62,915 nt of DNA from Candidatus Omnitrophota bacterium (GTDB lineage: Bacteria; Omnitrophota; Gorgyraeia; Gorgyraeales; Gorgyraeaceae), in the NCBI GenBank assembly GCA_018901615.1, contig JAHIEN010000108.1, positions 1 through 62,915 of the forward strand, given 5' to 3'. Under the pieces are notes generated by a model. It searched no databases. It had not been told where the DNA came from and saw only the letters and a list, made by a program, of their open reading frames with translations. Shown in pieces: positions 14,458 through 56,586 of this stretch. Position numbers and translations under genes: made by a program. Positions within the stretch are counted from its first letter, which is position 1, and every line of letters starts with the position of its first letter.

Positions 14458-15534
14458 ATGAAGAAAATCGTTTTATGTTTTTTATTTATTTTTAGCACTT
14501 TGTTTGTAAAGAATGTAATAGCGGAACCAGACAAAAACTACCCCGCGATTAAAGTTTTCGGCTTTACGCATCTACAGGCATTGTATGATGATACCGCTGG
14601 GTCCAACCACGGCGAAGAATTTAGGATTGCAAGGGCAAGGATTGGCGCTATAGGGAATATAACCGACATTGTAGATTATATGGTGTTGACCGAATGGGGT
14701 CGATTTACCTACAATGACCCTGTTACACTTTTAGACGCCTGGGTCAATTGGAAGCTCAACCCCGGCCTTAATATTAAGATAGGTCAAACCTGGTATAAAT
14801 TTTCTTTTTCTGGAACAGACAATCTGCCCAAGATCCCCTTTATCTACAGGCCGGAGGTCGTGGATGGGATTTGGTTAACTATGGGTAGAAATGGTTCCTA
14901 TGCCTATGATCAAGGTATTGAACTTTGGGGTGACTTTAAAGAAAGTAGATTTCCCTGGGCGTATATGTTTTTTATTACTAATGGCTCAGGGCTTGATAAT
15001 TTTGAGGACAATGGTAAAAAGGATTTTACAGGAAGGGCATGGATCGAGCCTAAAAAGGATTTAAGATTAGGCCTTTCTGGTTTTTATGGCCATTCCAGAA
15101 CAGAGGTTACCTCTAATTTGGGCAATGAGGAAAAAAGAGATTTACCCGAATATGCCTATGGATTAGAACTAGTATACACTAAGGAGCGCTTTCGTTTCAT
15201 TTATGAATATTTAGAAGGCCTTTATGAGGGGTATGTGGATATAAATGGAGCAGAGGTCTTTCATATCGCCACCAAGAGACCTAGAGGGTGGTATACGACA
15301 TTCAGCTTTAAACCTTTATCGTGGATTGAAATACCCGTTCGTTACGCATGGTATGAAAAGGACGCGGTAAATAGCGATACTGGTTTAGAGACAGTGACCG
15401 CTGGCGTTACCTGGTTTTTAAAAGAAGGGACCTTAAATAATGTTAAATTGAATTATATTATAAAGAGCGAGGAAGAAAATTATGGTTCAAGCCCTAAAAA
15501 TATGGTCGCGCTTCAAATGCAGCTCATATTTTAA
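14458..15534 (+). CDS. Outer-membrane beta-barrel porin (phosphate-selective porin O/P-like)
   Basis: Signal peptide (MKKIVLCFLFIFSTLFVKNVIA). Alternating aromatic and hydrophilic strands. C-terminal ..LQMQLIF ends in Phe, as in OMP barrels. Confidence 0.6.
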   Translation: MKKIVLCFLFIFSTLFVKNVIAEPDKNYPAIKVFGFTHLQALYDDTAGSNHGEEFRIARARIGAIGNITDIVDYMVLTEWGRFTYNDPVTLLDAWVNWKLNPGLNIKIGQTWYKFSFSGTDNLPKIPFIYRPEVVDGIWLTMGRNGSYAYDQGIELWGDFKESRFPWAYMFFITNGSGLDNFEDNGKKDFTGRAWIEPKKDLRLGLSGFYGHSRTEVTSNLGNEEKRDLPEYAYGLELVYTKERFRFIYEYLEGLYEGYVDINGAEVFHIATKRPRGWYTTFSFKPLSWIEIPVRYAWYEKDAVNSDTGLETVTAGVTWFLKEGTLNNVKLNYIIKSEEENYGSSPKNMVALQMQLIF

Positions 15535-15600
15535 ATGGTGATTATGCTAATTTTGGTTACCGTCAATAACGAATTATCTTTAACTTAAAAGGAGGGTGTT

Positions 15601-16833
15601 GTGTTAGAAAGAATTGGAAATTTTTTTATAGTGATTATTTTTATTTTGGCTTTAACAGTAGCGACAGCTCCTCTTCAGGCTGCAAATGAGAAGGGTGATA
15701 TTAACGATGGTTCATGCACTGGTTGGGGGTGGCCCCTGCCTTATGAACAGGTAAGTAAAAAATCTCTGGAATGGCTAGAATCAAAAGGGTGGTCGCCGCT
15801 GACTATCGGGTATTTTGCCGATATCCCAGGCTATTCAGCTTGTTATTCGATAATTAAAGAAAAACAACTTTTAGAGAAACGCGGACTTTCGGTACGTTTT
15901 GTAAGCTTTCTTTCCGGCCCCCCTATCGTAGAGGCATTTTTGGGTGGTCAGACTCAGGTTACGCACTACGGTGATTTCCCTTTTTGGTTAACAGTTGACA
16001 AGGGTGCTTTGGTTAAGGCATATGCATTAACCGGAGTTAATATGGAAGTGGCGATGCTCGTTCATCCGGATTCTTCCATAAAAAAACCAGAAGATCTTAA
16101 ACAAGAAGGAAGGTTAACAGTGGTGGGCGCAACTTTAGGTTCGTATGCAGAGTTTTATCTTACAGCAATGGCTGAGCAAAAGAATTTAGTAAGAGATAAA
16201 GATTTTAGAGTGGCTGGTTTAACTACAAGAGACGCCCAGCTTCTTCCTAAAGGCGTAGATGCGGTTTGTATCTGGGATCCGCATATAACATTTTCTGAAG
16301 AGAAGGGTTTGGGGAAGAAGATTGATACAGGATACGCTTATTTTTTTAATACAGGATTTGATTTTGTTCGCAGAGAGATTCATGAAAACGCCCCTGATGT
16401 GGTACAGGCTCTTGCTGATGCGGCGGTTGAAGCTCTTTTATACGCCGGCTATGATATTGATGGCACAGTGGATTTTTTTCGCAAAGATCCCAGGGTCTCA
16501 GCCTATTCCAAGGAGCTCATAAGAGATCAGATCGCTAAATACGTGACTTTTTATCCTCCCACGTTCCGTTATATTCACAAGAATTTTTGGGCAACCGAAG
16601 ATTCCCGTATTATTAAAGCGTTAAATGCGCAGGGTAGGGTAAAAAAACCATGGAGCATCGAGGAGATGGAGGAGGTTATGGCTCCGGAATACATGGCAAA
16701 CACCTTTCAAAGGTTAGGTTGGGAGATTCCCAAGGAGCCTGTTTTTTTGCCACTAGAATGGAATGGAAAAGTGTCAGAGCCGCCGTATCCCGGGTATATA
16801 GTATCCGAGAGCAGGCCTCGGAACAAAGAGTAG
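15601..16833 (+). CDS. ABC transporter periplasmic substrate-binding protein, NMT1/SsuA-like (NitT/TauT family)
   Basis: GTG start 5 nt after GGAGGG. Signal peptide ending APLQA. Size and layout fit a type-II binding protein. The cognate permease and ATPase genes lie at 22724-25052. Confidence 0.55.
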   Translation: MLERIGNFFIVIIFILALTVATAPLQAANEKGDINDGSCTGWGWPLPYEQVSKKSLEWLESKGWSPLTIGYFADIPGYSACYSIIKEKQLLEKRGLSVRFVSFLSGPPIVEAFLGGQTQVTHYGDFPFWLTVDKGALVKAYALTGVNMEVAMLVHPDSSIKKPEDLKQEGRLTVVGATLGSYAEFYLTAMAEQKNLVRDKDFRVAGLTTRDAQLLPKGVDAVCIWDPHITFSEEKGLGKKIDTGYAYFFNTGFDFVRREIHENAPDVVQALADAAVEALLYAGYDIDGTVDFFRKDPRVSAYSKELIRDQIAKYVTFYPPTFRYIHKNFWATEDSRIIKALNAQGRVKKPWSIEEMEEVMAPEYMANTFQRLGWEIPKEPVFLPLEWNGKVSEPPYPGYIVSESRPRNKE

Positions 16834-16861
16834 CTGGTATCCTGATAAGATATAAAACGTT

Positions 16862-18280
16862 ATGAGCGATATTACCCTAATAAACATAACTTCTAAAAAT
16901 ACTTACGATGGTAAAATAGTCAATAGGTTAAGTACCATCGGTATCTATAGTCTGATTGCCTGCCTGGAAGATTCAGGGATTAGCGTTGATTTCCGTGAAT
17001 ATTTTCTTGATTTTGAAAAATCGTCTTCCGAAGAGATGGTTACCGCTGTAAAATTTTTTAAAAATTCCGAGAAGATCATAGGAATTGGCTGCCATTCGAT
17101 CCATCTGCCATTCGTAGCGCGCGTCGCGCAGGAGATAAAAAAAGCATTTCCCGATAAGTTTATTATTTTAGGCGGAGTAGGCCCTTCAATTGTAGCTAGA
17201 CCTTTAATGGAGCTAATAAAAGATATAGATCTAATAGTGATAGGTGAGGCCGAGGTCAACCTTCCGCAGTTAGTCAAGGCCTTGATATATGGTGGTAAAA
17301 AATTATCCGATATTAAAGGAATTATATTTCGTGAAGACGATAAGATTATAGCTGCGCCGCCCATAGAGCGAGTTAATGATTTAGATGATTTGCCCATGCC
17401 CGCGTATAAGTATTTAGATGTTGGATTGTACAAACAGCCGATGGTTATGTCCGCGCGGGGTTGTCCTTTTGGTTGTCCTTTTTGTAGTTTGGGGGCTTAT
17501 TGGAACAGAAAAGTAAGCTATCGTTCCCCGGAAAGGATACAGAAAGAGCTTCAGACCTTGAGCGGGATGGGGGTTAAACGCGTCTTTTTTGCTGACCCCT
17601 GTTTTATGTTAAATAAAGAAAGGTTAATAGGATTTGCAGATGTTGTAAAAAAGGATGCCTTAATGGAAGAGCTTAAGACATACGGTCGCTTGGACTTAGT
17701 AGACAGAGAAACATGCCAGATTCTAGCCGATGCTAATTTTAAAGCTATTTTTTATGGGTTAGAATCAGGGAGCGATTCAGTTTTAAGACAAATTAAAAGA
17801 GGGATCAGAGTGCAAGACGGGTTAGAAACGATAAGGATGACTAAAAAATATTTTACACGGATAGAAGTAAGTTTAATGTGGGGTTTTCCTTTTGAGACAT
17901 TGGGCGATTTAAAGAAAACTATAGATATACACAATTATCTTAAAGATGAGCTGGGTTGTGTTGTGCAGCTTACCTGGTTTCAGCCATTTGCCAACACAAG
18001 GTATTTTCAGGAATACAAAAATATCTTAATGAAGCCCGAGTCGCTTTCAGGAATTTATGATAGACGTATAGGTAGAGAACAGATCCATTCGACACTTGAT
18101 CGTGCTAAAGAATATGATTATACAATAAGCCTAAGAAGCATGATCGGACATTCTCACGTTTATTCTTTGGCAAAAGAGCTGATAGATAGTAACCCGTGTA
18201 TATTTCCCGATTTTTATCGATATAAAACACCAGATTTAGACAAAAAACTAGATATAGTAAACAAAATAGTCCCTAATTAA
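16862..18280 (+). CDS. B12-binding-domain radical SAM protein (paralog group 2, copy A)
   Basis: Starts MSDITLIN, as do 18307 and 21215. IGIGCHSIHLPF...ILGGVGPS (B12-like domain), ARGCPFGCPFC, GLESGSD. Confidence 0.75.
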   Translation: MSDITLINITSKNTYDGKIVNRLSTIGIYSLIACLEDSGISVDFREYFLDFEKSSSEEMVTAVKFFKNSEKIIGIGCHSIHLPFVARVAQEIKKAFPDKFIILGGVGPSIVARPLMELIKDIDLIVIGEAEVNLPQLVKALIYGGKKLSDIKGIIFREDDKIIAAPPIERVNDLDDLPMPAYKYLDVGLYKQPMVMSARGCPFGCPFCSLGAYWNRKVSYRSPERIQKELQTLSGMGVKRVFFADPCFMLNKERLIGFADVVKKDALMEELKTYGRLDLVDRETCQILADANFKAIFYGLESGSDSVLRQIKRGIRVQDGLETIRMTKKYFTRIEVSLMWGFPFETLGDLKKTIDIHNYLKDELGCVVQLTWFQPFANTRYFQEYKNILMKPESLSGIYDRRIGREQIHSTLDRAKEYDYTISLRSMIGHSHVYSLAKELIDSNPCIFPDFYRYKTPDLDKKLDIVNKIVPN

Positions 18281-18306
18281 ACTAATAATAGTGGCTTTCT
18301 TATGTT

Positions 18307-19749
18307 ATGAGTGATATTACTTTAATAAATTTAACTATAGCAAAACATTTTAGCGGCAAGGTAGTCTATAAGCATAATTCGGTTGGAGTATTTCGATTGA
18401 TCGCTGTCCTTGAAAAGGCAGGATTTAAAGTCAATTTTTCCGAATATTGTTTGGATCATAGAAATTCTTTTTCGGAAGAGATAAAATGTTTTATATCCAT
18501 TATAGATCCTGCTTCTCCGCTTATAGGCATAGGGTGCCATTCGGTACATCTTCCTTTTGCAGTAATGGCCGCAAAAGAGTTAAAAAAAAGATTTCCTGAT
18601 AAAAAAATTATTATGGGGGGCATTGGCCCCTCTATGGTAGCTAAAAAATTATTAGAGAGATTTGATTTTATAAACGCTGTAGTGATTGGTGAAGCCGAAG
18701 AAACCATTGTGGAGGTTGTAAAAAATAGCATCAAAAGTTTTAAAGGCATAAAGGGCGTGCTTTATAGAGACAATGGCACTGTGGGTGTTAATGCGCCCAG
18801 GCTTCCCATAGAAGACTTGGACGCAATCCCATTGCCTGCTTACCATGCGGTAAACTTTAAAGAACAATATCAAATTCCCATTGTTTTTACATCTCGAGGG
18901 TGCCCTTTTGGGTGTTCCTTTTGTGGATTAAGCGCTTTCTGGGGAAGAAAGGTCAGATATCGTTCGTTTGATAATATAATAGAGGAACTCAGGCTTTTAA
19001 CGCATAACTATGGTATGAAATATTATTTTTTTGGCGATCCTACATTTACGCTAAATAAAGACAGGGCTCTCGAATTCTGCCAGAGGCTTCAAAAGGAAAA
19101 TTTAGGGATTAGATTTGATTGTATGGCCAGGATAGATTGCATTGATGAAGAGTTGATGGAGGAAATGGCAAAAAGCGGATGCGAGGCGCCATTTTATGGT
19201 TTAGAGTCAGGAAGCGACGATGTCCTTAAGAGGGTTAAACAGGGCGTTACCGTGAAACAGGCTTTAGAAGTCATTAAAAAATCTATCAGGCATTTTAAGA
19301 CAGTTGAAGTGGGCCTGATGTGGGGATTTCCCTTTGAGACATTAGATGATTTTAAACAAACAATTAATGCGAGAGAATATCTGGAAGATGAACTTGGCTG
19401 TGGCGTGCAGTTACGATGGCTTGAGCCATATCCCTGCACAGCGCTTTACAACGAATTTAAAAATGAGTTATTTTTACCTTATGACCAGAGCGCTATATTT
19501 AGATTTGATATGGTACACGAAGCTGTCGCCAAAGGAAAAAAATTCTATGAACCCGAAAAATATACTTCACAGGTCAATATCCCCCCCGACGTAACCAGTG
19601 TTCGATTTATGATTGCCGCTTCTCATATCGCATCGTTATGTCGAGAAACAATAGAACAGAATCAAGATATTTTCTGTGATTACTATCGCTATAAAACTCC
19701 GGCCTTAAAGGAAAAATTGGAATCCGCACAGCGATACAGCATATATTAA
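18307..19749 (+). CDS. B12-binding-domain radical SAM protein (paralog group 2, copy B)
   Basis: MSDITLIN start. SRGCPFGCSFC, GLESGSD. C-terminal DVTSVRFMIAASH...FCDYYRYKTP is shared with copy C. Confidence 0.75.
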   Translation: MSDITLINLTIAKHFSGKVVYKHNSVGVFRLIAVLEKAGFKVNFSEYCLDHRNSFSEEIKCFISIIDPASPLIGIGCHSVHLPFAVMAAKELKKRFPDKKIIMGGIGPSMVAKKLLERFDFINAVVIGEAEETIVEVVKNSIKSFKGIKGVLYRDNGTVGVNAPRLPIEDLDAIPLPAYHAVNFKEQYQIPIVFTSRGCPFGCSFCGLSAFWGRKVRYRSFDNIIEELRLLTHNYGMKYYFFGDPTFTLNKDRALEFCQRLQKENLGIRFDCMARIDCIDEELMEEMAKSGCEAPFYGLESGSDDVLKRVKQGVTVKQALEVIKKSIRHFKTVEVGLMWGFPFETLDDFKQTINAREYLEDELGCGVQLRWLEPYPCTALYNEFKNELFLPYDQSAIFRFDMVHEAVAKGKKFYEPEKYTSQVNIPPDVTSVRFMIAASHIASLCRETIEQNQDIFCDYYRYKTPALKEKLESAQRYSIY

Positions 19750-19757
19750 GGAAAATT

Positions 19758-21176
19758 ATGATGAAAAAAAATAGTTTTTTTTATTCTTGGTTATCGGATA
19801 AGAGAGAAAAAAAAGCAAATGACGGAAAAAAGTCATATCCCCTTAGTCAAAGAGTAAGAAAATTATTTCATAGCCATCACCTGGTAGGTAATTTTTTCCA
19901 CTATCGCACAGCGATAAAAATATTAGGCTGGAATTATAACAGTGTTTTTGAAGATGGCCGGTTGGATTTAAATCCTCACAGATGGGCGGATTTTGGCCCC
20001 TTAAATTTTCAAATAGGCCCCCCTAAAGATGTCGCAAGGTGTTTACAAAAGATGAGCATATCTAAAAATATAAACTCATACCCGCCAAATCTTATACCCT
20101 CTCTCAGAGAAATTGTTTCAAGGGTTATTTTTAAGCGGAGTTGTAGTAAAGATTTTGACTTGATTTGTACCGAAGGGGCTCAATCCGCTTTGGCGTATTG
20201 CATGCTGACGTTCGTTAATCGCGGCGATGAGGTTATAATAACAGACCCGGGATATTTTTTCTTTGAACCTCCGATCCTGACAGCGGGAGGAAAAATAAAA
20301 AGAATCACCCTTTCCAAAAAAAATAATTTCAGGATAGACATCGAAAGTCTTAAAAAGAAAATAACCCCCAGGACAAAAATAATCATCATTTGCGACCCCA
20401 TTAACCCTTTTGGTACCATTCAAACAGAGGATGAATTGAGGGAAATAATAAAAATCGCGAATAAGTACAATATTATAGTGCTAAATAACATAACCCATGG
20501 TTTTCATCGATTAAATGTAAATGCAGAACATAGCCCTATGAGTTCTTTGCGTGGCGCAAACTCAAAAAACGTCATTACGATCGCAGGCCTTTCGCATGGA
20601 TACGGATTGGCAGGTTTAAGGATAGGGTTTTTAGGAGCGCATCCTGAAATATTAAAACCTGTTTTATCAATAAAAAGCGCCTTGACCCGTATAAATACGA
20701 ATCTTTTAACACAGTACGCGGCTATAGCAGCTTTAGAGGACAATGAATATATCCATAACTGCGACAACCTGTTGAGAAAAAACTTTTCTTTTTTTAAGGA
20801 TATTATATATGGAATTCCAGCGCTAAGTTTTATTATAGAACCTGATTATGGTTTTTTCGCTTGCGTGGATACTTCCAAAATAAAAGCGAGCTCTCAGGAG
20901 TTGACCGTAGCCTTATTGAAAAGGAAATGCGCGGTGTATCCTTCGGATGGCTTAGGAAACACAAAAGCGTCTTCCTATATAAGGATAAATTTTTCTACGC
21001 CGCACAGAAAACATTTCACGTGGCTTAAGAAGGCATTGCCAAAGGCGATAAAAGAGGCTGAAACAAGAAAATATGGAAAAGCAGTGATTGATTTTTTTAG
21101 GTCCGTAGGTACGAAGAGGGCATTGAAAATAATTAAAGATATTGGTTCAGGAGCGTCTTTAAAGAATAAAAATTAG
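19758..21176 (+). CDS. Class I/II aminotransferase-fold protein lacking the canonical PLP-lysine
   Basis: CDPINPFGT (the NPxNPTG-like motif) and GLAGLRIGF (the GxRxG motif) identify the fold. The expected SxSK reads GLSH (His codon 20595-20597), and the expected D-x-x-Y region reads LNNITH. Confidence 0.6.
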   Translation: MMKKNSFFYSWLSDKREKKANDGKKSYPLSQRVRKLFHSHHLVGNFFHYRTAIKILGWNYNSVFEDGRLDLNPHRWADFGPLNFQIGPPKDVARCLQKMSISKNINSYPPNLIPSLREIVSRVIFKRSCSKDFDLICTEGAQSALAYCMLTFVNRGDEVIITDPGYFFFEPPILTAGGKIKRITLSKKNNFRIDIESLKKKITPRTKIIIICDPINPFGTIQTEDELREIIKIANKYNIIVLNNITHGFHRLNVNAEHSPMSSLRGANSKNVITIAGLSHGYGLAGLRIGFLGAHPEILKPVLSIKSALTRINTNLLTQYAAIAALEDNEYIHNCDNLLRKNFSFFKDIIYGIPALSFIIEPDYGFFACVDTSKIKASSQELTVALLKRKCAVYPSDGLGNTKASSYIRINFSTPHRKHFTWLKKALPKAIKEAETRKYGKAVIDFFRSVGTKRALKIIKDIGSGASLKNKN

Positions 21177-21214
21177 ACGAGCCCATATATGAAGCAAGTT
21201 TTTAGAGATTTTTT

Positions 21215-22657
21215 ATGAGCGATATTACATTGATCAATATATCCATAGCCAAATATTTCGGCACAAAAGTAGTCTATGAACGGAACGCCGTGGGGATTTT
21301 TTTATTGATCGCTGTTCTTGAACGGTCGGGGTTTAAAGTAGCTTTTCATGAGCATTTCTTAGATCATCGATGTACATTCAAAGAAGAGACGGATCGTTTT
21401 ATGTCTTTGATAGATCCAACATCTCTTTTTATAGGTATCGGATGTCATTCGGTCCATCTTCCTTTCGCGGTAAGGGTCGCAAAAAAATTAAAAACGCGGT
21501 TTCCTGATAAAATTATAATTATGGGAGGCATAGGGCCTTCAGCTGTAGCTAAGCAGTTATTAGAACGGTTTGCTTTTATTGATGTTATAGTAGTGGGAGA
21601 GGCCGAAGAGACCATAGTAGAAGTGATAGAGAAGGGCAGAAAGTCTTTTAAGGATATAAGAGGCATAGTCTATAGAGAGAAGGGTGCTGTATTTGTTAAT
21701 GATCCTCGGCCACCCATAGAAGATTTGGACGGTATTCCATTGCCAGCATATCATGCGGTGGATTTTAAGCGAGAGTATCAAATCCCCACTCTTTTTACTT
21801 CCAGGGGGTGTTCTTTTGCCTGTTCATTTTGTAGTTTGAGCACTTTTTGGGGAAAAAAAATCCGATATCGGTCAATCGATAACGTTATGCAGGAATTGAT
21901 TTTTTTGAAAGAGCATTATGGAACGAAATACATATTTTTTGGTGACCCTACTTTTAACGCGGATAGAGACAGAATCCTCATGTTTTGCCGTAGGATGAAG
22001 AAGGAAGGATTAGGGCTTAAATGGGAATGCTTGGTAAGGGCGGATTATATGGACGAAGAAATGATGGATTGCATGAAACAAGCCGGGTGCGAAACAGTAT
22101 TTTATGGATTAGAATCAGGAAGCAGAAGCATCTATAAGAAAATTAAACATGATATTTTTATAGATAGATCAATAGAAAACATACAAAAATCTTTTAAATA
22201 TTTCAAAACCGTGGAAGTAAGTTTAATATGGGGCTTTCCTTTTGAGACATTGGATGATTTTAAGACAACGCTGGAAATGCGAAATTCCTTAGAAAACGAA
22301 CCCGGTTGCGAAGTACAGCTGCGGTGGCTGGAGCCCTATCCCGGAACACCGCTTTATAAAGAATATAAAGATGAATTGTTTTTACCTGAAATACATAGCT
22401 TGATTTTTCAGAAAGAGAGAGTTGGTTCAGCTATAGCAGGAGGAAAGGACTATTATGCCTGTCAAGGCGGGGAATCAGGTATTCGTATTCCCGCTGATGT
22501 TACCAGTGTTCGATTTATGATCGCCGCTTCTCATACTGCGTCGTTATGCCGAGAAATAATCGAACAAAACCCCGATATTTTTTGTGATTACTATAGATAT
22601 AAAACGCCAGATTTAGAAGAAAAATTGAGACTCGCAAAAAGATATAGTGTTTATTAA
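21215..22657 (+). CDS. B12-binding-domain radical SAM protein (paralog group 2, copy C)
   Basis: MSDITLIN start. SRGCSFACSFC, GLESGS. 39 of the first 60 residues are identical to copy B by eye, and both are 480 aa. Confidence 0.75.
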   Translation: MSDITLINISIAKYFGTKVVYERNAVGIFLLIAVLERSGFKVAFHEHFLDHRCTFKEETDRFMSLIDPTSLFIGIGCHSVHLPFAVRVAKKLKTRFPDKIIIMGGIGPSAVAKQLLERFAFIDVIVVGEAEETIVEVIEKGRKSFKDIRGIVYREKGAVFVNDPRPPIEDLDGIPLPAYHAVDFKREYQIPTLFTSRGCSFACSFCSLSTFWGKKIRYRSIDNVMQELIFLKEHYGTKYIFFGDPTFNADRDRILMFCRRMKKEGLGLKWECLVRADYMDEEMMDCMKQAGCETVFYGLESGSRSIYKKIKHDIFIDRSIENIQKSFKYFKTVEVSLIWGFPFETLDDFKTTLEMRNSLENEPGCEVQLRWLEPYPGTPLYKEYKDELFLPEIHSLIFQKERVGSAIAGGKDYYACQGGESGIRIPADVTSVRFMIAASHTASLCREIIEQNPDIFCDYYRYKTPDLEEKLRLAKRYSVY

Positions 22658-22723
22658 GCTGTATTTCTGCGATAATATGGCAGGCTGGACACGTTAGAAT
22701 GAACGAGAGGGTAATGCATTACA

Positions 22724-23482
22724 TTGAAATATTTTTCTAGATACTTATCATTTATAATTTTCATTATTTTCTGGCAGGTCTGTGCGGAGTATATCTATCC
22801 ACAGTTTAACCCTATGGCACATAATGTTCTTCCTTCTCCGTGGGAGGTAGTGCGGATGGGAGCGGAGTTATTCAGGAGAGGAGAGTTGGTAAGACATATA
22901 TGGGCTACCGTGAGGCGGGTTGCGATTGGATTTTCATTAGCAGTTCTGATTGGAATTTTTTTAGGGGGTTTAATGGGTTTAAATAGCGCTGTGAAGGAAC
23001 GCTTGAAATTGATAATCGTCCTTTTAAGACCGATACCACCCTTTGCCTGGATTCCCTTGGGACTGATTTGGTTTGGGATAGGGGAAGCGGAGATGATAAT
23101 GATCATTGTTATCAGCAGCGTTTTTTTTGTGGCCATACACACTCTTTATGGAATAGAAAGAATTGACTTTAGATTGAAGCAGGCAGCAAAAAGTTTAGGG
23201 TCGAATCGCTGGGATTTATTGAAAAGGGTAATCCTGCCAAGTTTATTGCCAGAATTATTTCATGGGATGAGGCTGGCTTTGGGCTTTTGCTGGGTTGCGG
23301 TTGTGGGGGCCGAGATAGTCGGTTCTGTTTCTGGTTTGGGTTATTTAATTTTAGATTCAAGGAATCGAGGCCTTCCCCAGATGGCTATTTTAGGAATGAT
23401 GTTGATAGGTTTTATTGGTCTGAGCATGGATCGTATATTAGTCAGGGTTAAGAAGACATTTTTACCGTGGGATAGTAAATGA
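22724..23482 (+). CDS. ABC transporter permease (NitT/TauT family)
   Basis: TTG start. About 6 TM segments. The EAA-like loop AAKSLGSNRWDLLKRVILPSLLP is typical of binding-protein-dependent permeases. Confidence 0.7.
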   Translation: MKYFSRYLSFIIFIIFWQVCAEYIYPQFNPMAHNVLPSPWEVVRMGAELFRRGELVRHIWATVRRVAIGFSLAVLIGIFLGGLMGLNSAVKERLKLIIVLLRPIPPFAWIPLGLIWFGIGEAEMIMIIVISSVFFVAIHTLYGIERIDFRLKQAAKSLGSNRWDLLKRVILPSLLPELFHGMRLALGFCWVAVVGAEIVGSVSGLGYLILDSRNRGLPQMAILGMMLIGFIGLSMDRILVRVKKTFLPWDSK

Positions 23483-24273
23483 CAGGACGCCTTACGAAAA
23501 TCGCGCATAGAGTAAAAAAATTTGATTTGATTATATTAGTGTTATTTTCATGGGAAATCTTCGCGCGATTTATTTATCCTCGATTTGAACCTCGAGCGGC
23601 AGTTTATTTACCAGCTTTTTCAAGTGTCTTAAAGGAATGCTGGCAACTTCTGGCCGATGGAATTCTCATGCAGCATATATGGGCTAGTCTTAGACGCGTA
23701 TTGATTGGTTTTTCATTAGCTTCTTTATTCGGCATAACCTTAGGATTCATTATAGGTCTTTCACAAAAAGCATATGAACAATTGCATACACTGTGTCAAA
23801 TTTTTCGGCCTATACCTCCTGTAGCATGGATACCGATTAGCTTGCTTTGGTTTGGAATAACAGACGCGCAGCAGTATTTTATTATTTTTATAGGCGTCCT
23901 TTTTCCTATTTTGTTTAATACCTTGCAGGGTGTCCATAGTGTGTCCAGTCAATATAAACTCGTAGCGCAGGCTTTAGGGGCTCGAAGATTCCTGCTTATA
24001 AGGCGAGTGATATTGCCAGCAGTCCTTCCAAGGATAATTTTTGGATTACGTTCAGGGGTTGGATATGCCTGGTTTATAATAGTGGCAGCTGAGTTTGTTT
24101 CAGCGCCCAATGGCCTGGGCTACCTTATTTTAGAAGGAAGAAACATGATCATTACAGAGAGGATTTTTGTAGGCATGATAACCATAGGCGCGATAAATCT
24201 TTTTTTTCATTATTTTTTAACTAAATTTGAAAATTGGATTGCGCCTTGGCGGAAAATCGCTTTTATTTTTTAA
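23479..24273 (+). CDS. ABC transporter permease (NitT/TauT family), second subunit
   Basis: Paralog of 22724. Loop VAQALGARRFLLIRRVILPAVLP. Start overlaps the upstream stop. Confidence 0.7.
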   Translation: MTGRLTKIAHRVKKFDLIILVLFSWEIFARFIYPRFEPRAAVYLPAFSSVLKECWQLLADGILMQHIWASLRRVLIGFSLASLFGITLGFIIGLSQKAYEQLHTLCQIFRPIPPVAWIPISLLWFGITDAQQYFIIFIGVLFPILFNTLQGVHSVSSQYKLVAQALGARRFLLIRRVILPAVLPRIIFGLRSGVGYAWFIIVAAEFVSAPNGLGYLILEGRNMIITERIFVGMITIGAINLFFHYFLTKFENWIAPWRKIAFIF

Positions 24274-24275
24274 TT

Positions 24276-25052
24276 ATGGCCAAAGTAGAGTTTAAGAATG
24301 TATCCAAAGTTTACCAGGATAGTAAAGACGATCGCAAGATACTGTCTTTAAAAGACATTTCTTTTTTAGTGAATCCGGGTGAGATTATGGTGTTAATCGG
24401 TCCGTCTGGCTGCGGCAAGACCACGATCTTAAACCTTATTGCAGGTTTTATTCAGCCTACGGAAGGAAAGGTATTATTTAACGGCCAGCCGGTTACCGGC
24501 CCTGGAGCGGAACGAACGATAATCTTTCAGGAGTATATCCTCTTTCCCTGGTATTCAGTCCGCAATAATATCGAATTTGGTTTGACTGCTAAGAAGGTCC
24601 CGAAACAAGAAAGGCGGCGGATATCCGACGAGTTATTATCTTTAGTCGATTTAGAGCGATTTGCCGATTTCTACCCCCACCAGTTATCCGGAGGGATGAA
24701 GCAGCGCGTTGCTTTAGCGAGAGCACTTGCCGTAAATCCGGAAGTCCTTTTGATGGATGAGCCATTTGGTTCTTTAGACGAGCAGGTGAGAAGGTTTTTG
24801 CAGCAGTCTTTATTAAAAATTTGGAGAGTTAAAAGGCCGACAATTATTTTTGTTACGCATAGCATTGGTGAAGCGCTTATTCTCGGCCATAAGATCTTGG
24901 TATTGAGCTGTCAGCCGGCTGAAGAACGCGATTATATAGAAATCAATAAACCTTTTCCTCGTGATCTTGTGCGTGATTTATTTTTTCAAGATATCAAGAT
25001 CAGAATCCATGGAATGCTACAAGAAGAGTTTAAAAAAGGTAAAAAGTGTTAG
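24276..25052 (+). CDS. ABC transporter ATP-binding protein (SsuB/TauB-like)
   Basis: Walker A GPSGCGKTT, signature LSGGMKQR, Walker B LLMDEPFGSLD. The ATG at 24276 (MAKVEFKNV) is preferred over the upstream in-frame start of the ORF track, which overlaps the permease gene. Confidence 0.8.
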   Translation: MAKVEFKNVSKVYQDSKDDRKILSLKDISFLVNPGEIMVLIGPSGCGKTTILNLIAGFIQPTEGKVLFNGQPVTGPGAERTIIFQEYILFPWYSVRNNIEFGLTAKKVPKQERRRISDELLSLVDLERFADFYPHQLSGGMKQRVALARALAVNPEVLLMDEPFGSLDEQVRRFLQQSLLKIWRVKRPTIIFVTHSIGEALILGHKILVLSCQPAEERDYIEINKPFPRDLVRDLFFQDIKIRIHGMLQEEFKKGKKC

Positions 25053-25058
25053 CCCTTA

Positions 25059-26336
25059 ATGAAAAATAAAATAATCAAGATTGTAATCTGGATTATTTCC
25101 TGGCTAAGGTCCGGTAGTTTACGAAGAAAAATTATCTTGCCATTCCTTAGTTCTAAATTTTTTACGTTTCTATCATTAGATTTTTTAAAGCCCCCCCGGA
25201 ATAAAATTTCTGATAACCCTGCCAGAAGCCAGATCTTGTTTCAAAAAATTTATTTAAAGATATTTAGGAAGCCGGAAGTTTTTTTGTGTAACTTTCAGGA
25301 TACTTTAAGGGTGTGTGCAACCTACAGGTGCAATTTGTCTTGCAAATCATGTTATGCCCGGGGATTACATGATCAAATGCCGGTCGATATGAAAATAGAT
25401 GATTTTAAGCGTCTAATAAAGTGGTCAAAAGACAAAGGTTGGAAAAAAATAAGATTTTTGGGAGGGGAGGCTACTATTCACCCGGAGTTTATCAAGATGC
25501 TGGATATTTGTTATCAAAATCAAATGATGGTTACGATACCGACGAATAACCTTTTTCCGGAAAAGATCCTGAAAAATCTCGATAATCGTTTAGTAAAGGA
25601 CATTTCCATTAACTACAATGCCGGCTTTATGAATGATAAACAAAAAAATAGACTCTTCAGGGAGAATATTGGAAAACTCGCGCAACGCGACATGCCTTTT
25701 GGGTTTTCTTATGTGTTAAGTTATGAAGAAGACAGCGATAATTGGACCGATCTTATCAAGGATGCTGAACGGTTTAAACCTTTATATATCAGGGTAAGTA
25801 TTGAACTTCCTTCTTTTTCCGACCAGTCTTTTTTTGCCGAACTTGACCCTGACGCGCTATTTGCGAAAGTACACCGGATGTGGCAGATGAGCGCGAAGTT
25901 ATACATCCCATTTTTTTTCTACCGCCCTGTACTTTTGTGCATGGTCCCGCAATGGGTTCTGGATTCCGATTATTATTCTGGACATCTTTTTTTTACCTGT
26001 TGTCCGATCAGCTATTGTTCGAAGGATAGTGGTTACGGTACGATGGTTACGGTCAATCCAGACTTGTCTACTTTTCCCTGCGCATCGGTGTTTATCAAAG
26101 GGCCGGAAATACTTAGTTTTAATGACCGGAGCGAAATAGATCTTTTTTATAGAGAACAGATAAAGGCTTTGTTATTAACCCCGCTTATGAATAAGTGTAA
26201 TTATTGCAAATACCGGAGAGAATTTGTTGCGGCTGTTCAAAAGGACCAGGCAATGATTGATGATAAAGGTATTTGCCAGGCCGGATGCGCTAATTTTCGG
26301 TGTCACAATAGCGTGTGTTTTAATTGCAAAGAATGA
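25059..26336 (+). CDS. Radical SAM protein with Cys-rich (SPASM-like) C-terminal region
   Basis: CNLSCKSCY cluster motif and GGEATIHPE. The C-terminal third has many Cys (FFTCCPISYC, FPCAS, KCNYCKY, CQAGCANFRCHNSVCFNC). Confidence 0.65.
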   Translation: MKNKIIKIVIWIISWLRSGSLRRKIILPFLSSKFFTFLSLDFLKPPRNKISDNPARSQILFQKIYLKIFRKPEVFLCNFQDTLRVCATYRCNLSCKSCYARGLHDQMPVDMKIDDFKRLIKWSKDKGWKKIRFLGGEATIHPEFIKMLDICYQNQMMVTIPTNNLFPEKILKNLDNRLVKDISINYNAGFMNDKQKNRLFRENIGKLAQRDMPFGFSYVLSYEEDSDNWTDLIKDAERFKPLYIRVSIELPSFSDQSFFAELDPDALFAKVHRMWQMSAKLYIPFFFYRPVLLCMVPQWVLDSDYYSGHLFFTCCPISYCSKDSGYGTMVTVNPDLSTFPCASVFIKGPEILSFNDRSEIDLFYREQIKALLLTPLMNKCNYCKYRREFVAAVQKDQAMIDDKGICQAGCANFRCHNSVCFNCKE

Positions 26337-26360
26337 ATGCCAGTGTGTGGTAGCTAAAAG

Positions 26361-27908
26361 ATGAGCAAGAAAATAATTAGTTTAATTTCCACTGAGCTTA
26401 TCCCTACTTGTCACGGACTGCGAAGCATCTCTTCGTTTTTACGGCAAAAAGGATACGACACAAAACTTATTTTTTTCGGTACCCGGAGCCGGCGCTATCC
26501 GCAAAAGGCCTTAAGAGAATTACGGAATTGCGTTAATGGGTCAGACTTAATAGGTATTTCTTGCTACAGCCAGAGTTTTTCTAAAGCCTTGCAGGTCATC
26601 TCCGTTTTAAAACCGCTTAGTATTCCTATTGTCTGGGGTGGCTGTCATGCCACACTGAATTCCGCCGAATGCATTAAGCATGTCGATATCATCTGCAGAG
26701 GTGAGGGAGAAGGCGCAATTCTGGAATTGATAGGATCTCTCGACAATCGCGAAAAAATAAAACGGATCCCTAACTTATGGGTTAAACAAAATGGGGAAAT
26801 ATTTAAGAATGCGCTTCGGCCGCTCATGCCCAATCTGGATATACTGCCTCCGGAAGATTACGAATTCAATCACCAGTATTTTCTTGAATCCGGGAAACGT
26901 ATTGCGCGATATGCCGGACAAAGATTAGGCGCTCAAAGCTATCAAAATGTGCTTGCGAGAAAAAAACTAAAAGGATTTAGCGTATCCTTATCGCGCGGAT
27001 GTCCTTATGCTTGCGCGTATTACTATAATTATGATTACAAGGAGATTTACCGGGACATCAACAATAATACCCTTAAAAGAAAAAGCGTTGAGGCCGCGAT
27101 AAAAGAAATACTTTATTATAAAAAGAAACTTAATTTGACTTCGCGGTTTCATTTTATCTCATTTGATGATGACGATTTTTTTGTGCGCCCTTTAAGTGAA
27201 ATAAAACAATTCTCTGAAGAATACCGAAAGAATATTGGTATTTCTTTTGGGTGCCATGTCCACGTACAGTCTTTCAATGAAGAGAAGCTTAAGGCGCTCA
27301 TCGATGCCGGCTTAAAAGTAGTAACCACGGGGCTGCAGACGGGGAGCGAGAGGATTAACCGGGAAATATATAACCGGATCGTATCGGATAAAGAAGTGAT
27401 CAATGTGGCAAAAACGCTGCGTCGATATTTAAAATATTTCTTTCTGCCCCCTTCTTATCATGTAATAAACACTAATCCCTACGAGACAAAAGAAGACGTG
27501 TGGAAGACAATTAACCTTATCAATGAGCTGCCCCGTCCGTTTAATATTCAGATATTCCAATTAGCGTTCTTTCCTAACAGCCGGCTGGCCACTAAGGCGT
27601 TTGAAGATAAAGTTGTTATGAATAAAAAAGATTTAGCTTTCGACCTCCATTATTACGACGCGATTTCTTATCTGAAAAGGAGGCGAAATTACCGCTACGA
27701 GTGGTTTTTATTGAATTTAATGAACGGTAGTCACCATAGATTTCGTAAAGGGCGGATCTCTTATTTGATGTTCAATATCCTTACGCACAAAAGAATGCTC
27801 AAAATGTCTGAGCGCTGCAGTTGGATAACATATTTATTATCTTTGCTTTTTCTTTTCTCAAAAAAAAGATATGTAAGGTATCATTATGAACGAAACCACA
27901 GATTGTAA
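26361..27908 (+). CDS. B12-binding-domain radical SAM-like protein (paralog group 1) with degenerate cluster motif CxxxCxxY
   Basis: WGGCHAT...ICRGEGE, then SRGCPYACAYYYN. The third Cys position is Tyr (codon tac, 27021-27023). GLQTGSERIN is retained. IPNLWVKQNGEIFKNALRP matches group 1. Confidence 0.65.
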   Translation: MSKKIISLISTELIPTCHGLRSISSFLRQKGYDTKLIFFGTRSRRYPQKALRELRNCVNGSDLIGISCYSQSFSKALQVISVLKPLSIPIVWGGCHATLNSAECIKHVDIICRGEGEGAILELIGSLDNREKIKRIPNLWVKQNGEIFKNALRPLMPNLDILPPEDYEFNHQYFLESGKRIARYAGQRLGAQSYQNVLARKKLKGFSVSLSRGCPYACAYYYNYDYKEIYRDINNNTLKRKSVEAAIKEILYYKKKLNLTSRFHFISFDDDDFFVRPLSEIKQFSEEYRKNIGISFGCHVHVQSFNEEKLKALIDAGLKVVTTGLQTGSERINREIYNRIVSDKEVINVAKTLRRYLKYFFLPPSYHVINTNPYETKEDVWKTINLINELPRPFNIQIFQLAFFPNSRLATKAFEDKVVMNKKDLAFDLHYYDAISYLKRRRNYRYEWFLLNLMNGSHHRFRKGRISYLMFNILTHKRMLKMSERCSWITYLLSLLFLFSKKRYVRYHYERNHRL

Positions 27909-29433
27909 GATGAAAATCAATATCGTTGTTGCTCCGACAATGCACCATCCTTATCAGTTACGGCGGATTTCGCATAATGATCAAGATCTTCCGCCTTACG
28001 GGGCCGCCTGCATCGCTTCATTTTTAAAAGCAAAAGGGTATTCTGTAGCGATAAAGGATTTTCCTTTATTTTTTGATGAATTTCGGGATATCTTGAAGTT
28101 ACTGGATAGCAAAGCAATGTTCGAAAAGATCACGGAATACGTTACTAAAGATATTCCGCATCCGATGGTGGATAAATTCGCCGAGAAGATGCTTAACTGT
28201 GTCACTGAGGACAGATGCGATCTTTTAGGGTTTTCTCTCTTGAGCCGCCTTAGTCTTCCAATTTCTCTGTTATTAGCTAAAAAGGTGAAACAAAAAAGTA
28301 AAGTTCCAATTGTATTCGGCGGAGCAGTTGTTACGGAGTTTTTCGAACAATATAAATTTAATAAAAAGAGTTTTTTCTTTAGTAACTACGGAAACTGCAA
28401 TTTCATTGATTATTTTATTGTCGGAAAAGGAATGTATCCTTTACTTGGGCTTTTGGAATACCTCCAGGGAAAGGTAAACATTGACAAGATTCCCAATCTC
28501 GTATACCACAAAGAAGGCGAATTAAAATTGAATCAAAGGGTTTTTTTTGGCCTCGAAGAGATTCCTGTTCCTGATTTTTCTGATTTGAATTTAGGTAAAT
28601 ACGAGACCATTCAGCGCAGGATGAGCAAAAAAAGACGGGAGCCAAAACGATTACAACTACCTTACCAGATTACTTCCGGATGTGTTCATAAATGCAGTTT
28701 TTGTAATTTTTATTTAGTGAGCCCTAACGTGCAGTTTAAAAGCTGCGATAAGGTTATCCGTGAATTGATGTTCCTTAAAAAAAAGTATAATACTAATCAT
28801 TTTTTCTTTTGTGAATCCAATGTCAACCTTTCTTATAAATATCTGAAAGAACTATGCGAAGGTATTATTAAGCATAAATTGGATATTGTCTGGAGGAGTG
28901 TCGCAAGCATCGTTAACATTGACAAAAACCTGCTCTCATTACTGAAAGCATCCGGCTGCTACAGTCTTACTTGGGGGATCGAATCGGGCAGCGATGCGAT
29001 TTTAAAGAAAATGAATAAAGGATTTACCGCTTCCCATGCGCGTCAGGTTTTAAAAGATGCACATGATGTTGGTATACATAATACCGTCAATTTTATCACT
29101 GGTTTTATTCATGAAACAAAAAAGGATTTAAATTATACAATTTCTTTTGCGAAGGAAAACGCGGCTTATATTGACAAAGTAAGGATATTTGATTTTGCGC
29201 TTGCTTTTTATACGCCAATACACTTCCATCCAGACCGGTATGGAATTGAAAATATATTCGTTGATTATAATTCTTTAATGGGATTTTCGCGTATCGGATT
29301 TGATGAACAGGGTGGTTTAAAATGGGACAAAAAAATCAAGCAAAAACTAAAATTTTACCGGATGGCGTCACAGGCGATTTTAAAACAAGAGATTTTTAAT
29401 ACTATTTGGAAAAAAATAAGCAATTGTCTTTAG
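27886..29433 (+). CDS. B12-binding-domain radical SAM protein (paralog group 3)
   Basis: TSGCVHKCSFC, GIESGSD. IPNLVYHKEGE...IPVPDFSDLNL parallels ORF 41756. An alternative start at 27910 (MKINIVV) is possible. Confidence 0.7.
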   Translation: MNETTDCKMKINIVVAPTMHHPYQLRRISHNDQDLPPYGAACIASFLKAKGYSVAIKDFPLFFDEFRDILKLLDSKAMFEKITEYVTKDIPHPMVDKFAEKMLNCVTEDRCDLLGFSLLSRLSLPISLLLAKKVKQKSKVPIVFGGAVVTEFFEQYKFNKKSFFFSNYGNCNFIDYFIVGKGMYPLLGLLEYLQGKVNIDKIPNLVYHKEGELKLNQRVFFGLEEIPVPDFSDLNLGKYETIQRRMSKKRREPKRLQLPYQITSGCVHKCSFCNFYLVSPNVQFKSCDKVIRELMFLKKKYNTNHFFFCESNVNLSYKYLKELCEGIIKHKLDIVWRSVASIVNIDKNLLSLLKASGCYSLTWGIESGSDAILKKMNKGFTASHARQVLKDAHDVGIHNTVNFITGFIHETKKDLNYTISFAKENAAYIDKVRIFDFALAFYTPIHFHPDRYGIENIFVDYNSLMGFSRIGFDEQGGLKWDKKIKQKLKFYRMASQAILKQEIFNTIWKKISNCL

Positions 29434-29493
29434 TGGAATAGCTTAAGTTTGTAGTAAAATTATTTGTTACTTAAGAACAGCATAAATGTCACT

Positions 29494-34152: not shown

Positions 34153-34587
34153 ATGAAAAAATCTATGCACGCGCCGCAGGTATTAAATGAACCTGTTAAA
34201 TACGTCAAACCTGTTTCTTTTTCCCGGGGGATGAGGGTTGATCTGGGGGAGTGGGGTATATTGTTTATTTCAGGAACAGCAAGCGTAGATAAGCATGGGA
34301 AGACAGTATATCGTGGTGATTTACTGGCCCAGAGTAAACGTACATTCAAAAATCTTACTGCATTGCTTAAGTCTGAAGGCGCCAGTTGGCATAATGTTGT
34401 GAAGACAACTTGTTTTTTAAAGGATATGCTTAATTATGATGCCTTTAATGAATTCAGAAACAGGTTCTATAAAGACCAGGGACTTAAAATGTTCCCAGCT
34501 TCCACCTGTGTAGAAGCATGTCTTTGCCGCGCGGATCTACTTGTGGAAGTGGAGTTGATCGCTATCTTTAAAATAAAAAGAAAATAG
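34153..34587 (+). CDS. RidA/YjgF/Endoribonuclease L-PSP family protein
   Basis: 144 aa. LFISGTASVDKHGK, VVKTTCFLKDM and PASTCVEA...VEVELIA match the family layout. Confidence 0.75.
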   Translation: MKKSMHAPQVLNEPVKYVKPVSFSRGMRVDLGEWGILFISGTASVDKHGKTVYRGDLLAQSKRTFKNLTALLKSEGASWHNVVKTTCFLKDMLNYDAFNEFRNRFYKDQGLKMFPASTCVEACLCRADLLVEVELIAIFKIKRK

Positions 34588-49940: not shown

Positions 49941-49948
49941 AGAACAGT

Positions 49949-56568: not shown

Positions 56569-56586
56569 GGTAGTTTGTCTATTTGT

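Follow-up and report, generated by a model that had tools for sequence, protein, structure and literature searches.

How did a bacterium of the candidate phylum Omnitrophota come to encode three similar B12-binding radical S-adenosylmethionine (SAM) proteins almost side by side, and what do these proteins do? The genes, which we will call A, B, and C, lie in a stretch of 62,915 nucleotides from Candidatus Omnitrophota bacterium (contig JAHIEN010000108.1 of assembly GCA_018901615.1, positions 1 to 62,915 of the forward strand; we will call this whole stretch the window). A sequence-only reading of this DNA had explained the three copies by local tandem duplication with divergence, which would suggest iterative or regio-distinct chemistry on one scaffold, and it had compared them to the thienamycin enzymes ThnK, ThnL, and ThnP. 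We will argue that A, B, and C are old paralogs of one family, judging from their sequences, and not a young local triplication. They are encoded among the genes of a predicted importer. We propose, with a probability of roughly 40%, that they are cobalamin-dependent radical SAM enzymes, most probably C-methyltransferases, that tailor an imported small anionic compound resembling an amino acid or a keto acid, and that the product feeds an envelope glycan.

Three B12-binding radical SAM proteins

The three genes are as follows.

16862..18280, + strand: copy A, an A-type B12-binding radical SAM protein, 472 amino acids, with a C-terminus ending in KIVPN
18307..19749, + strand: copy B, a BC-type B12-binding radical SAM protein, 480 amino acids
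21215..22657, + strand: copy C, a BC-type B12-binding radical SAM protein, 480 amino acids

The listing of open reading frames (ORFs) agrees exactly with the positions, lengths, and common first eight residues that had been reported: all three proteins begin with MSDITLIN. The reported domain order is also the same in all three copies. The B12-binding domain (PF02310) scores 45.7 bits in A, 42.0 in B, and 50.1 in C, all above the Pfam cut-off of 32.1, and the Radical_SAM domain scores 75-94 bits across the copies, with A at 75.5 (cut-off 29.5). Over the first 60 residues, B and C match at 39, as had been counted by eye; A is more diverged, with 29 matches to B and 28 to C. Along their full length, B and C are 64% identical (307/480 without gaps, BLASTP E = 0; 64.0% by global alignment). 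A is 43% identical to B by BLASTP (E = 4e-141) or 44.7% by global alignment, and 43.3% identical to C by global alignment. These sequence similarities lie far beyond what chance would be expected to produce. The remaining five B12-radical-SAM genes in the window encode proteins with just 20-28% identity to A, B, or C.

None of the three copies shows the loss of cluster or SAM-binding residues that the sequence-only reading had named as evidence against it. The CxxxCxxC motif is CPFGCPFC in A (from residue 201), CPFGCSFC in B, and CSFACSFC in C, and the motif YGLESGS is kept in all three. The three cluster cysteines are invariant among 112 aligned relatives, and CxxxCxxC is carried by all 12 A-type and all 49 BC-type sequences. 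Where B and C depart from positions that are at least 90% conserved among BC-type proteins, they do so by conservative changes only, so both look functional by this measure.

B and C also share a distinctive C-terminal block, which is real: they are 85% identical across its 40 columns. At the nucleotide level, the 3' ends of the two genes (19578-19750 and 22486-22658) are 79% identical over 173 nt, versus 68% over the whole genes. Either the C-terminal block is under strong constraint, or part of the two genes underwent gene conversion long ago. Comparing the two types, we found 10 columns that are constant within the A-type and within the BC-type and differ between them. In the numbering of B they are M287, C292, F349, R370, L372, E373, Y375, T430, A438, and C445. 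Seven of these lie in the C-terminal 115 residues, and none lies in the B12 domain. The C-terminal region of the family is presumed to bind the substrate. This pattern is compatible with two types that share their cofactor machinery and differ in how they handle substrates, which might mean distinct steps or distinct substrates.

Two old lineages in one family

The common N-terminus had been taken as a sign of duplication, and this does not hold. From a search that spanned 5.8 billion proteins, we obtained about 60 full-length homologs (39-65% identity) that start with M(S/N/T)DITL(I/V)N and end with (Y/F)YRYxTPxLxxK. The homologs with both terminal motifs are mostly from metagenome-assembled genomes (MAGs) of Omnitrophica and Elusimicrobia. 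Because MSDITLIN and YYRYKTP are family-wide motifs, shared termini are no sign of a recent duplication.

The nucleotide sequences also indicate that the copies are old. The start regions of the three genes carry synonymous differences. In all pairs, the proportion of such differences (pS, by the Nei-Gojobori method) is 0.72-0.80, so the synonymous distance (dS) is saturated. It follows that the ratio of nonsynonymous to synonymous rates (dN/dS), which the sequence-only reading had recommended, is meaningless for any pair. We also considered recent gene conversion at the shared 5' ends and rejected it: the first 24 nt differ synonymously, and a 29-nt repeat at the start is just 83% identical.

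To place the copies among their relatives, we built a distance-based neighbor-joining tree (numpy implementation) of 81 sequences, with 300 bootstrap replicates; support at the deep nodes is weak (47-59%). The A-type clade has 100% support and includes proteins of three Elusimicrobiota genomes that are 62-66% identical to A. More broadly, A-type orthologs in Elusimicrobiota and in metagenome loci are 62-67% identical to A, as compared to 43-45% for A against B or C. B lies in a clade with 80% support along with 18 proteins of other MAGs, while the position of C, outside the B clade, is weakly resolved. B and C are exclusive sisters in 37 of the 300 replicates, and B is about as similar to its best foreign homolog (65% identity) as it is to C (64%). 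Thus, A is not the closest relative of the other two copies, and the same appears to be true of B and C relative to each other, if weakly. The sequence-only reading had named such a phylogeny, as a sign of independent acquisition, among the findings that would refute it, but it reflects ancient paralogy and not necessarily separate arrivals. On sequence grounds, the family holds two old lineages: the A-type, and the BC-type that includes B and C. Of the proposal of local tandem duplication, what stands is that the copies are paralogs of one family; what fails is that the duplication was recent.

Distribution of the family and its copy number

Family loci were collected by scanning the GTDB species representatives and JGI metagenomes and by exact look-ups. 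More than 20 were recovered, some of which are duplicate records of one place. Our counts of co-occurring genes therefore rest on about 20-25 partly redundant loci, and most of the related contigs are short. (Loci are denoted by L numbers below.) Family-level matches (at least 50% identity) were found in at least about eight MAGs among 185,579 GTDB species; this is a minimum, as the scan used two peptide patterns. The family is small and uncharacterised, and is found in Omnitrophota and Elusimicrobiota.

As the sequence-only reading had proposed to check, related loci hold one, two, or three copies. Those with one copy include L005/L052, L003/L048, L006, L045, and L059. Two copies are found in L007/L055, L011, L050, and L053, in the order aminotransferase-fold gene, A-type gene, BC-type gene. 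Three copies are found in the window and in L009.

More distant relatives (32-40% identity) occur in tandem arrays of 3-5 B12-radical-SAM genes (L016, L018-L020, L022-L024, L026, and L040). These arrays are found in Aminicenantes (five copies in 8 kb), Deferrimicrobium, Deltaproteobacteria, Kuenenia, Brocadia, Rhodospirillales, and Blastocatellia, and in several loci a HemN-like radical SAM gene comes next.

A conserved coupling to an importer

The sequence-only reading overlooked the operon and its transporter, along with the missing catalytic lysine of the aminotransferase-fold protein and the abundance of radical SAM genes in the window. A, B, and C belong to a co-directional, operon-like run from 14458 to 34107 with gaps of at most 66 nt. 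Upstream of 14458 there is a 182-nt gap with a promoter-like site. The genes around A, B, and C in this run are:

14458..15534, + strand: OprO/P-like outer-membrane porin, first in the run, which has a signal sequence at its N-terminus (Pfam Porin_O_P, 34.4 bits)
15601..16833, + strand: SsuA/TauA/NrtA-type periplasmic binding protein, 410 amino acids, with a signal peptide (NCBIfam SsuA_fam, 83 bits; the cut-off of 163.5 is not reached)
19758..21176, + strand: class I/II aminotransferase-fold protein, 472 amino acids, with His280 replacing the Schiff-base lysine (Pfam Aminotran_1_2, PF00155, 131 bits; cut-off 19.7)
22724..23482, + strand: permease 1 of an ATP-binding cassette (ABC) importer, TauC/SsuC/NrtB type (Pfam BPD_transp_1, 81.6 bits)
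23479..24273, + strand: permease 2 of the ABC importer (Pfam BPD_transp_1, 75.4 bits)
24234..25052, + strand: ATPase of the ABC importer (Pfam ABC_tran, 122.8 bits)
25059..26336, + strand: radical SAM protein without a B12 domain, 425 amino acids, with a Cys-rich SPASM-like C-terminus (Pfam Radical_SAM, 42.3 bits; CNLSCKSC from residue 91)
26361..29433, + strand: two B12-radical-SAM genes encoding 515 amino acids each (Pfam matches; gaps of 24 nt and -23 nt)

A lies directly after the binding protein, B and C flank the aminotransferase-fold gene (which had been noticed before), and the permeases follow C. The run ends with genes for a 1213-amino-acid beta-propeller protein and an alkaline-phosphatase-superfamily protein.

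By the fold of its binding protein and by the domains of its permeases and ATPase, the importer is of the SsuA/TauA type. The AlphaFold2 model of the binding protein (mean predicted local distance difference test [pLDDT] 91.4) has its best Foldseek matches to SsuA (3ksj and 2x26) and to TauA (6ssy, solved with 2-aminoethylphosphonate [2-AEP]), with E = 3e-16 to 4e-15 and template-modeling scores (TMt) of 0.72-0.82; NrtA and CmpA come next. No component has an equivalog-level NCBIfam match to sulfonate or taurine systems. For the permeases, the models SaoP, TauC, NtrB, and SsuC are all under their cut-offs (TauC 144 vs 342; SsuC 118-135 vs 347), as are the SaoA and TauB-type models for the ATPase (TauB-type 229 vs 357). 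The window resembles SsuABC and TauABC with their oxygenases SsuD and TauD in the fold of the binding protein, in the types of permease and ATPase, and in having an enzyme gene embedded among transporter genes. It differs from them in having two permease genes, a radical SAM enzyme in place of the oxygenase, and NCBIfam scores under cut-off.

The highest-scoring of these models belong to the selenocysteine-assisted organometallic (SAO) system (SaoP 178 vs 295 and SaoA 252 vs 360). We rejected this candidate. No SAO-specific protein (described in bioRxiv 10.1101/2022.07.06.499078) was seen among the window ORFs that were scanned, and we treat the similarity to SaoP and SaoA as the generic similarity of TauC/SsuC-type transporters.

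Parts of this arrangement recur across phyla in different combinations. In L005, the order is porin, binding protein, one BC-type gene, permease, permease, and ATPase, with 60-78% identity to the window's proteins. In L009, from Elusimicrobiota, it is porin, A, binding protein, a divergent copy, B, permeases, and ATPase. The orthologs in these two loci are 70-71% identical for the binding protein, 65-66% for permease 1, 64-69% for permease 2, and 65-78% for the ATPase. Porin orthologs (44-73% identity) adjoin family members in L005, L009, L044, L046, and L060; a permease or ATPase gene is adjacent to a BC-type gene in L044, L047, L059, and L012; and the porin adjoins a BC-type gene on some short contigs. 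The closest syntenic locus (L005/L041/L052) is from a MAG labelled "uncultured Planctomycetia." We took the taxonomic labels of MAGs as given, and this one may reflect misbinning or horizontal transfer. There, the importer is adjoined by a 926-amino-acid fusion of a B12-radical-SAM domain to a second radical SAM domain, by an Orn/Arg-decarboxylase-like gene, and by a 2-oxoacid:ferredoxin oxidoreductase.

The most constant neighbour of the family is the 425-amino-acid radical SAM protein. In most family loci a homolog is encoded within 10 kb (28-45% identity; L003, L005, L007, L008, L010, L011, L012, L014, L045, L054, L059, and L061). Envelope-glycan genes are also regular neighbours: in the window and in the related loci with annotated maps that we examined, we found glycosyltransferases, Wzy, Wzm/Wzt, PMT_2, GT9, DegT, or RmlD-like genes within 10 kb.

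An aminotransferase fold without its lysine

The protein encoded between B and C has a conserved N-terminal extension of about 85 amino acids ahead of the aminotransferase fold. Its best matches in the PDB are Asp and aromatic aminotransferases (E = 4e-31). It also has a partial match to DegT_DnrJ_EryC1 (PF01041; 29.9 bits, residues 139-249). In a HMMER alignment to the aromatic aminotransferase of Pyrococcus (1DJU), GfSKtfamtGwRlGf pairs with GlSHgyglaGlRiGf, and the SK of the former corresponds to S279-H280 of the latter. At this position of the Schiff-base lysine, 117 of 119 homologs have His and none has Lys. The equivalent of Tyr225 is His in all 119. The equivalent of Asp222 is Asn in the window's protein and is Asp in 90 homologs and Asn in 29. 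The Asn of the NPxG motif, the phosphate-binding Arg, and the Arg that binds the alpha-carboxylate are invariant across the 119 proteins. From these residues, the protein is probably dependent on pyridoxamine phosphate (PMP), or is otherwise no plain transaminase. The retained carboxylate Arg and the closeness to amino-acid aminotransferases suggest that its substrate is an alpha-keto or alpha-amino acid.

A change from Lys to His is the hallmark of the PMP-dependent 3-dehydratases ColD, E1, and SpnQ. ColD, E1 (AscC), and SpnQ resemble the window's protein in having an aminotransferase fold with His in place of the Schiff-base lysine. They belong to the DegT/DnrJ/EryC1 family of sugar aminotransferases, to which the window's protein has the partial match given above, and they act on nucleoside diphosphate-4-keto-sugars. 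The window's protein is nearest to Asp and aromatic aminotransferases and keeps the alpha-carboxylate Arg.

In L007, L011, L012, L050, and L053 (Elusimicrobiota and Omnitrophota), an ortholog with 52-62% identity is the immediate neighbour of an A-type or BC-type gene, and a relative with 47% identity is likewise beside a family gene on a contig from Thermodesulfobacteriota (L015). Other homologs from Thermodesulfobacteriota (43-44% identity; L033 and L034, on contigs of 2.3 and 3.1 Mb) have a different conserved neighbourhood, with a methyltransferase, the aminotransferase-like gene itself, a PALP enzyme, and an ornithine/diaminopimelate decarboxylase, and with GT4, AllH, and a radical SAM gene upstream. 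This second neighbourhood gave no substrate identity for the aminotransferase-fold protein.

A 144-amino-acid ORF of the RidA/YjgF family (34153-34587; Ribonuc_L-PSP, 80.7 bits) occupies most of the sole large gap (486 nt) in the run of genes. RidA proteins quench the enamine or imine products of enzymes that use pyridoxal phosphate.

Similarity to class B radical SAM enzymes

The AlphaFold2 model of copy B has a pLDDT of 94.8 and a predicted TM-score (pTM) of 0.93. When it was compared to the PDB with Foldseek, the top matches were all class B radical SAM enzymes: MgmA, AprD4, CysS, TsrM, OxsB, and TokK (TM-score 0.62-0.66, 16-22% identity). The model superposes on the cobalamin-bound structures of TsrM, OxsB, TokK, and CysS. 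As judged from the model, membership in class B is established at the level of the fold, with no functional twin. Methyltransferases make up the majority of the class B radical SAM enzymes that have been characterised. CysS and TokK are known to methylate iteratively, and chemistry of this type is what the sequence-only reading had suggested for A, B, and C.

The best structural match is MgmA, a protein glutamine methylase. MgmA/QCMT (9ccb), CysS (9n1b), TsrM (6wte), and TokK (7kdx) share the family's domain order (E = 1e-23 to 1e-18): an N-terminal B12-binding Rossmann domain, then the radical SAM barrel that carries CxxxCxxC, then a C-terminal domain. They differ in lacking a transporter operon and the MSDITLIN and YYRYKTP termini. 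MgmA acts on a protein, CysS on carrier-bound aromatic ethers, TsrM on tryptophan, and TokK on a carbapenem. By sequence, the B12 domain of the family aligns with CysS and TokK but not with AprD4. AprD4 (6fd2), the 1,2-diol dehydratase of apramycin biosynthesis, is the family's second-best structural match as well as its best match by sequence, and its pathway also employs aminotransferase-fold enzymes on a sugar. AprD4 is cobalamin-independent; the family differs in having a B12 domain that scores above the Pfam cut-off.

The comparison to ThnK, ThnL, and ThnP is a loose one. In the thienamycin system, as here, several class B paralogs are encoded together, presumably to act on one scaffold. 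But the similarity to TokK is limited to the fold (TM-score 0.62, 17% structural identity; the sequence match, with E = 3e-5, is confined to the B12 domain). Among the window ORFs scanned there were no core genes for a carbapenem, and the neighbours are genes for transport, for glycans, and for other radical SAM proteins. The family also differs from ThnK/L/P and TokK in forming conserved orthogroups in at least two phyla, with ties to an importer. Paralogy as such is ordinary. What is unusual is the conserved coupling to an importer and the His-variant partner; we found no paper on the family, on its coupling to an importer, or on a lysine-less aminotransferase-fold partner in the literature that we searched.

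Proposed function

Our proposal draws on what the analysis showed: the fold and its motifs, an operon-like arrangement, neighbours that recur, and two orthogroups that are old. The porin and the SsuA/TauA-type importer would bring a small anionic solute into the cell. A, B, and C would each cleave SAM at the [4Fe-4S] cluster to form a 5'-deoxyadenosyl radical, which would abstract hydrogen from an unactivated carbon, either in the imported compound or in a derivative, and methyl-cobalamin would then donate a methyl group to the substrate radical. The A-type and BC-type enzymes might act at different positions or on different intermediates, while B and C might catalyze consecutive steps or ones that are closely related. 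The molecule's alpha-keto or alpha-amino acid end would be the target of the His-variant aminotransferase-fold enzyme, and the 425-amino-acid radical SAM protein may act on the same compound. The product would be supplied to the surrounding cell-envelope glycan island. In favor of methylation, the methylases MgmA, CysS, TsrM, and TokK are among the top structural matches of copy B.

Several observations weigh against this proposal. The best PDB match by sequence is AprD4, a non-methylating diol dehydratase (E = 2e-19, covering only core residues 169-395), and class B enzymes that are not methylases (OxsB, BchE, and HpnJ-like proteins) score about as well as the methylases do. No NCBIfam model reaches its cut-off: the copies score 135-194 bits with ApyD (NF050148, cut-off 750), 94-158 with HpnJ (TIGR03471, 577.6), 114-129 with BchE (TIGR02026, 481), 104-125 with the PhpK family (TIGR04479, 600), and 46-83 with AprD4 (NF033070, 500). 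The genomic associations are also incomplete. The importer is missing within 10 kb in the family loci L007, L008, and L011; the aminotransferase-fold gene is missing in L005 and L009; and binding-protein homologs with 45-56% identity are found in other phyla (Myxococcota, Hyphomonadaceae, and others), where they retain the four-gene transporter without any radical SAM gene. The phylogeny is from neighbor-joining only, with the weak deep nodes given above. Finally, the substrate, cobalamin binding, methyl transfer, and the link to the glycan are all inferred.

The most serious competitor, which we consider unlikely, is anaerobic nutrient scavenging: the locus could be an O2-independent counterpart of ssuEADCB or tauABCD, with the porin and importer taking up organosulfonates or phosphonates. 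The B12-radical-SAM enzymes would replace SsuD or TauD and would initiate either the radical cleavage of a C-S or C-P bond or a 1,2-elimination, like AprD4 or the isethionate lyase of the glycyl-radical type; the aminotransferase-fold enzyme would carry out beta-elimination on a sulfo- or phosphono-keto acid in a PMP-dependent manner; and the paralogs would broaden the range of substrates. This account would explain why the binding protein is structurally nearest to SsuA and to TauA, whose structure contains 2-AEP, why the porin is from the phosphate- and anion-selective OprO/P family, and why the best PDB sequence match, AprD4, is an eliminating enzyme. In L005, the single radical SAM gene sits between the genes for the binding protein and the permeases, which resembles the placement of the oxygenase in tau and ssu operons, and the RidA-family gene is within the same island. 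Furthermore, a radical SAM protein has been tied to anaerobic isethionate assimilation and adjoins tau/ssu genes (PMC11423573). Where homologs of the binding protein occur in other phyla, their neighbours include phosphodiesterases and an aminotransferase (L035) or PEP-mutase-superfamily genes and TauE (L037), or they come directly after pstSCAB-phoU (L038); these contexts hint at a sulfur- or phosphorus-containing organic anion but are not decisive. However, the gene set recurs in islands for envelope-glycan biosynthesis, which would be unexpected for a scavenging operon. The B12 domain seems intact and is similar to that of genuine cobalamin methylases. The window showed no sulfite reductase, sulfite exporter, or phosphatase that could serve as a partner, and there is no regulator of sulfur or phosphorus starvation.

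A broader form of this idea is that the porin, importer, and radical SAM enzymes make up an unrecognised O2-independent system that processes small organosulfonates or organophosphonates, or else anionic amino acids related to them. SsuD or TauD would here be replaced by the radical SAM enzymes together with the His-containing aminotransferase-fold partner, and the paralogs would serve different substrates or steps. We regard this as doubtful.

Another possibility, which seems quite doubtful to us, is that the enzymes tailor a sugar or nucleotide sugar of the envelope glycan directly, by C-methylation or deoxygenation (as do GenK, GenD1, and AprD4), with the aminotransferase-fold protein acting like ColD, E1, or SpnQ and the importer being separate. 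All of the annotated family loci that we examined are surrounded by envelope-glycan genes, and AprD4, which acts on an aminoglycoside sugar, is a top match in both sequence and structure. The Lys-to-His change of ColD and E1 is present, as is the partial match to DegT_DnrJ_EryC1. But the nearest relatives of the aminotransferase-fold protein and its alpha-carboxylate Arg (119/119) favor an amino or keto acid over a nucleotide sugar as the substrate, there is no adjacent nucleotidyltransferase, and the radical SAM genes are interleaved with transporter genes, with gaps of at most 66 nt, in at least three lineages.

C-methylation of a protein or of a ribosomally synthesized peptide with post-translational modifications (RiPP), as by ApyD, PoyB/C, or MgmA, is improbable. 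The RiPP enzyme ApyD is the best NCBIfam match, albeit far under its cut-off; the best structural match, MgmA, acts on a protein; the constant 425-amino-acid partner has a Cys-rich SPASM-like tail; and the distant relatives in Kuenenia have several small ORFs just upstream. Yet the gaps in the operon are too short for a precursor gene, and of the 337 small ORFs of the island, none is conserved outside of annotated genes in 19 related loci. As for how the copies arose, a recent lineage-specific tandem triplication followed by rapid divergence would fit their adjacency, common strand, similar lengths, and the similar 3' ends of B and C, but it is contradicted by the saturated dS, the family-wide termini, and the foreign orthologs that are closer to A, or as close to B, as the other copies are, which makes it very improbable.

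A radical SAM-rich envelope island

Radical SAM genes are unusually numerous in the region from 12129 to 44574 of the window: eight encode B12-binding proteins, and there are three others. They are interleaved with glycosyltransferases, Wzy, Wzm/Wzt, and PMT_2.

B12-binding radical SAM genes start at 12129, 16862, 18307, 21215, 26361, 27886, 34594, and 41756
Other radical SAM genes start at 25059, at 36712 (HMPTM zinc ribbon, with TrsS/Tes-like matches), and at 43198 (HemN/ChuW-like)

The first of the two genes that encode 515-amino-acid proteins (26361-27908) has CPYACAYY, with Tyr for the third Cys of CxxxCxxC, so judging from this motif its product may be catalytically dead or a non-canonical paralog. 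An ortholog of the second (46% identity) follows the ATPase in L005. At the beginning of the region (12129-14275), a B12-radical-SAM gene (about 466 amino acids) is followed, with a 4-nt overlap, by a class I SAM methyltransferase (about 250 amino acids). This pair recurs beside the family at 4669-6895 of L008 (a MAG from Elusimicrobiota, identified by BLAST) and at 7840-9986 of L003 (a MAG from Omnitrophica, identified by gene order and Pfam).

The G+C content is 34-41% over the island of glycan and radical SAM genes (1-47000) and 41-47%, mostly 46-47%, in 47700-62915. The latter is a housekeeping block with PNPase, UppP, FtsK, RodZ, a MiaB-like protein, PgsA, CinA, RecA, and HtrA. This contrast suggests a compositionally distinct envelope island that is possibly mobile or fast-evolving.

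Clusters with up to 13 neighbouring radical SAM genes, several of which have B12-binding or HemN_C domains, have been described in Elusimicrobia from groundwater (Meheust et al., bioRxiv 10.1101/765248). Those clusters are from the same phylum as many members of our family, but they differ in being defined by nitrogenase-like NifHDK paralogs. We considered these NifH-paralog clusters and the nitrogenase-like/radical SAM system for sulfonates (IsrBHDK; PMC11423573) as counterparts of the locus and rejected both: no Nif-like gene was seen among the window ORFs scanned.

Implications

Class B radical SAM enzymes carry out very hard reactions, such as alkylating unactivated carbon or phosphorus, and few of them have known substrates. 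The family described here comprises two old orthogroups in candidate phyla that have few or no cultured members. Its evolutionary lesson is that a shared N-terminus is, in this case, no evidence of a recent duplication. The association with a binding protein offers a testable handle, as the ligand of this protein should reveal the substrate of the pathway. Overall, the locus points to anaerobic chemistry of an unexplored kind that acts on a small molecule brought in by the importer. This chemistry would turn out to be one of two things: a new way to use organosulfonates or phosphonates anaerobically, or the biosynthesis of an unusual and heavily modified substituent of the envelope glycan in Omnitrophota and Elusimicrobiota.

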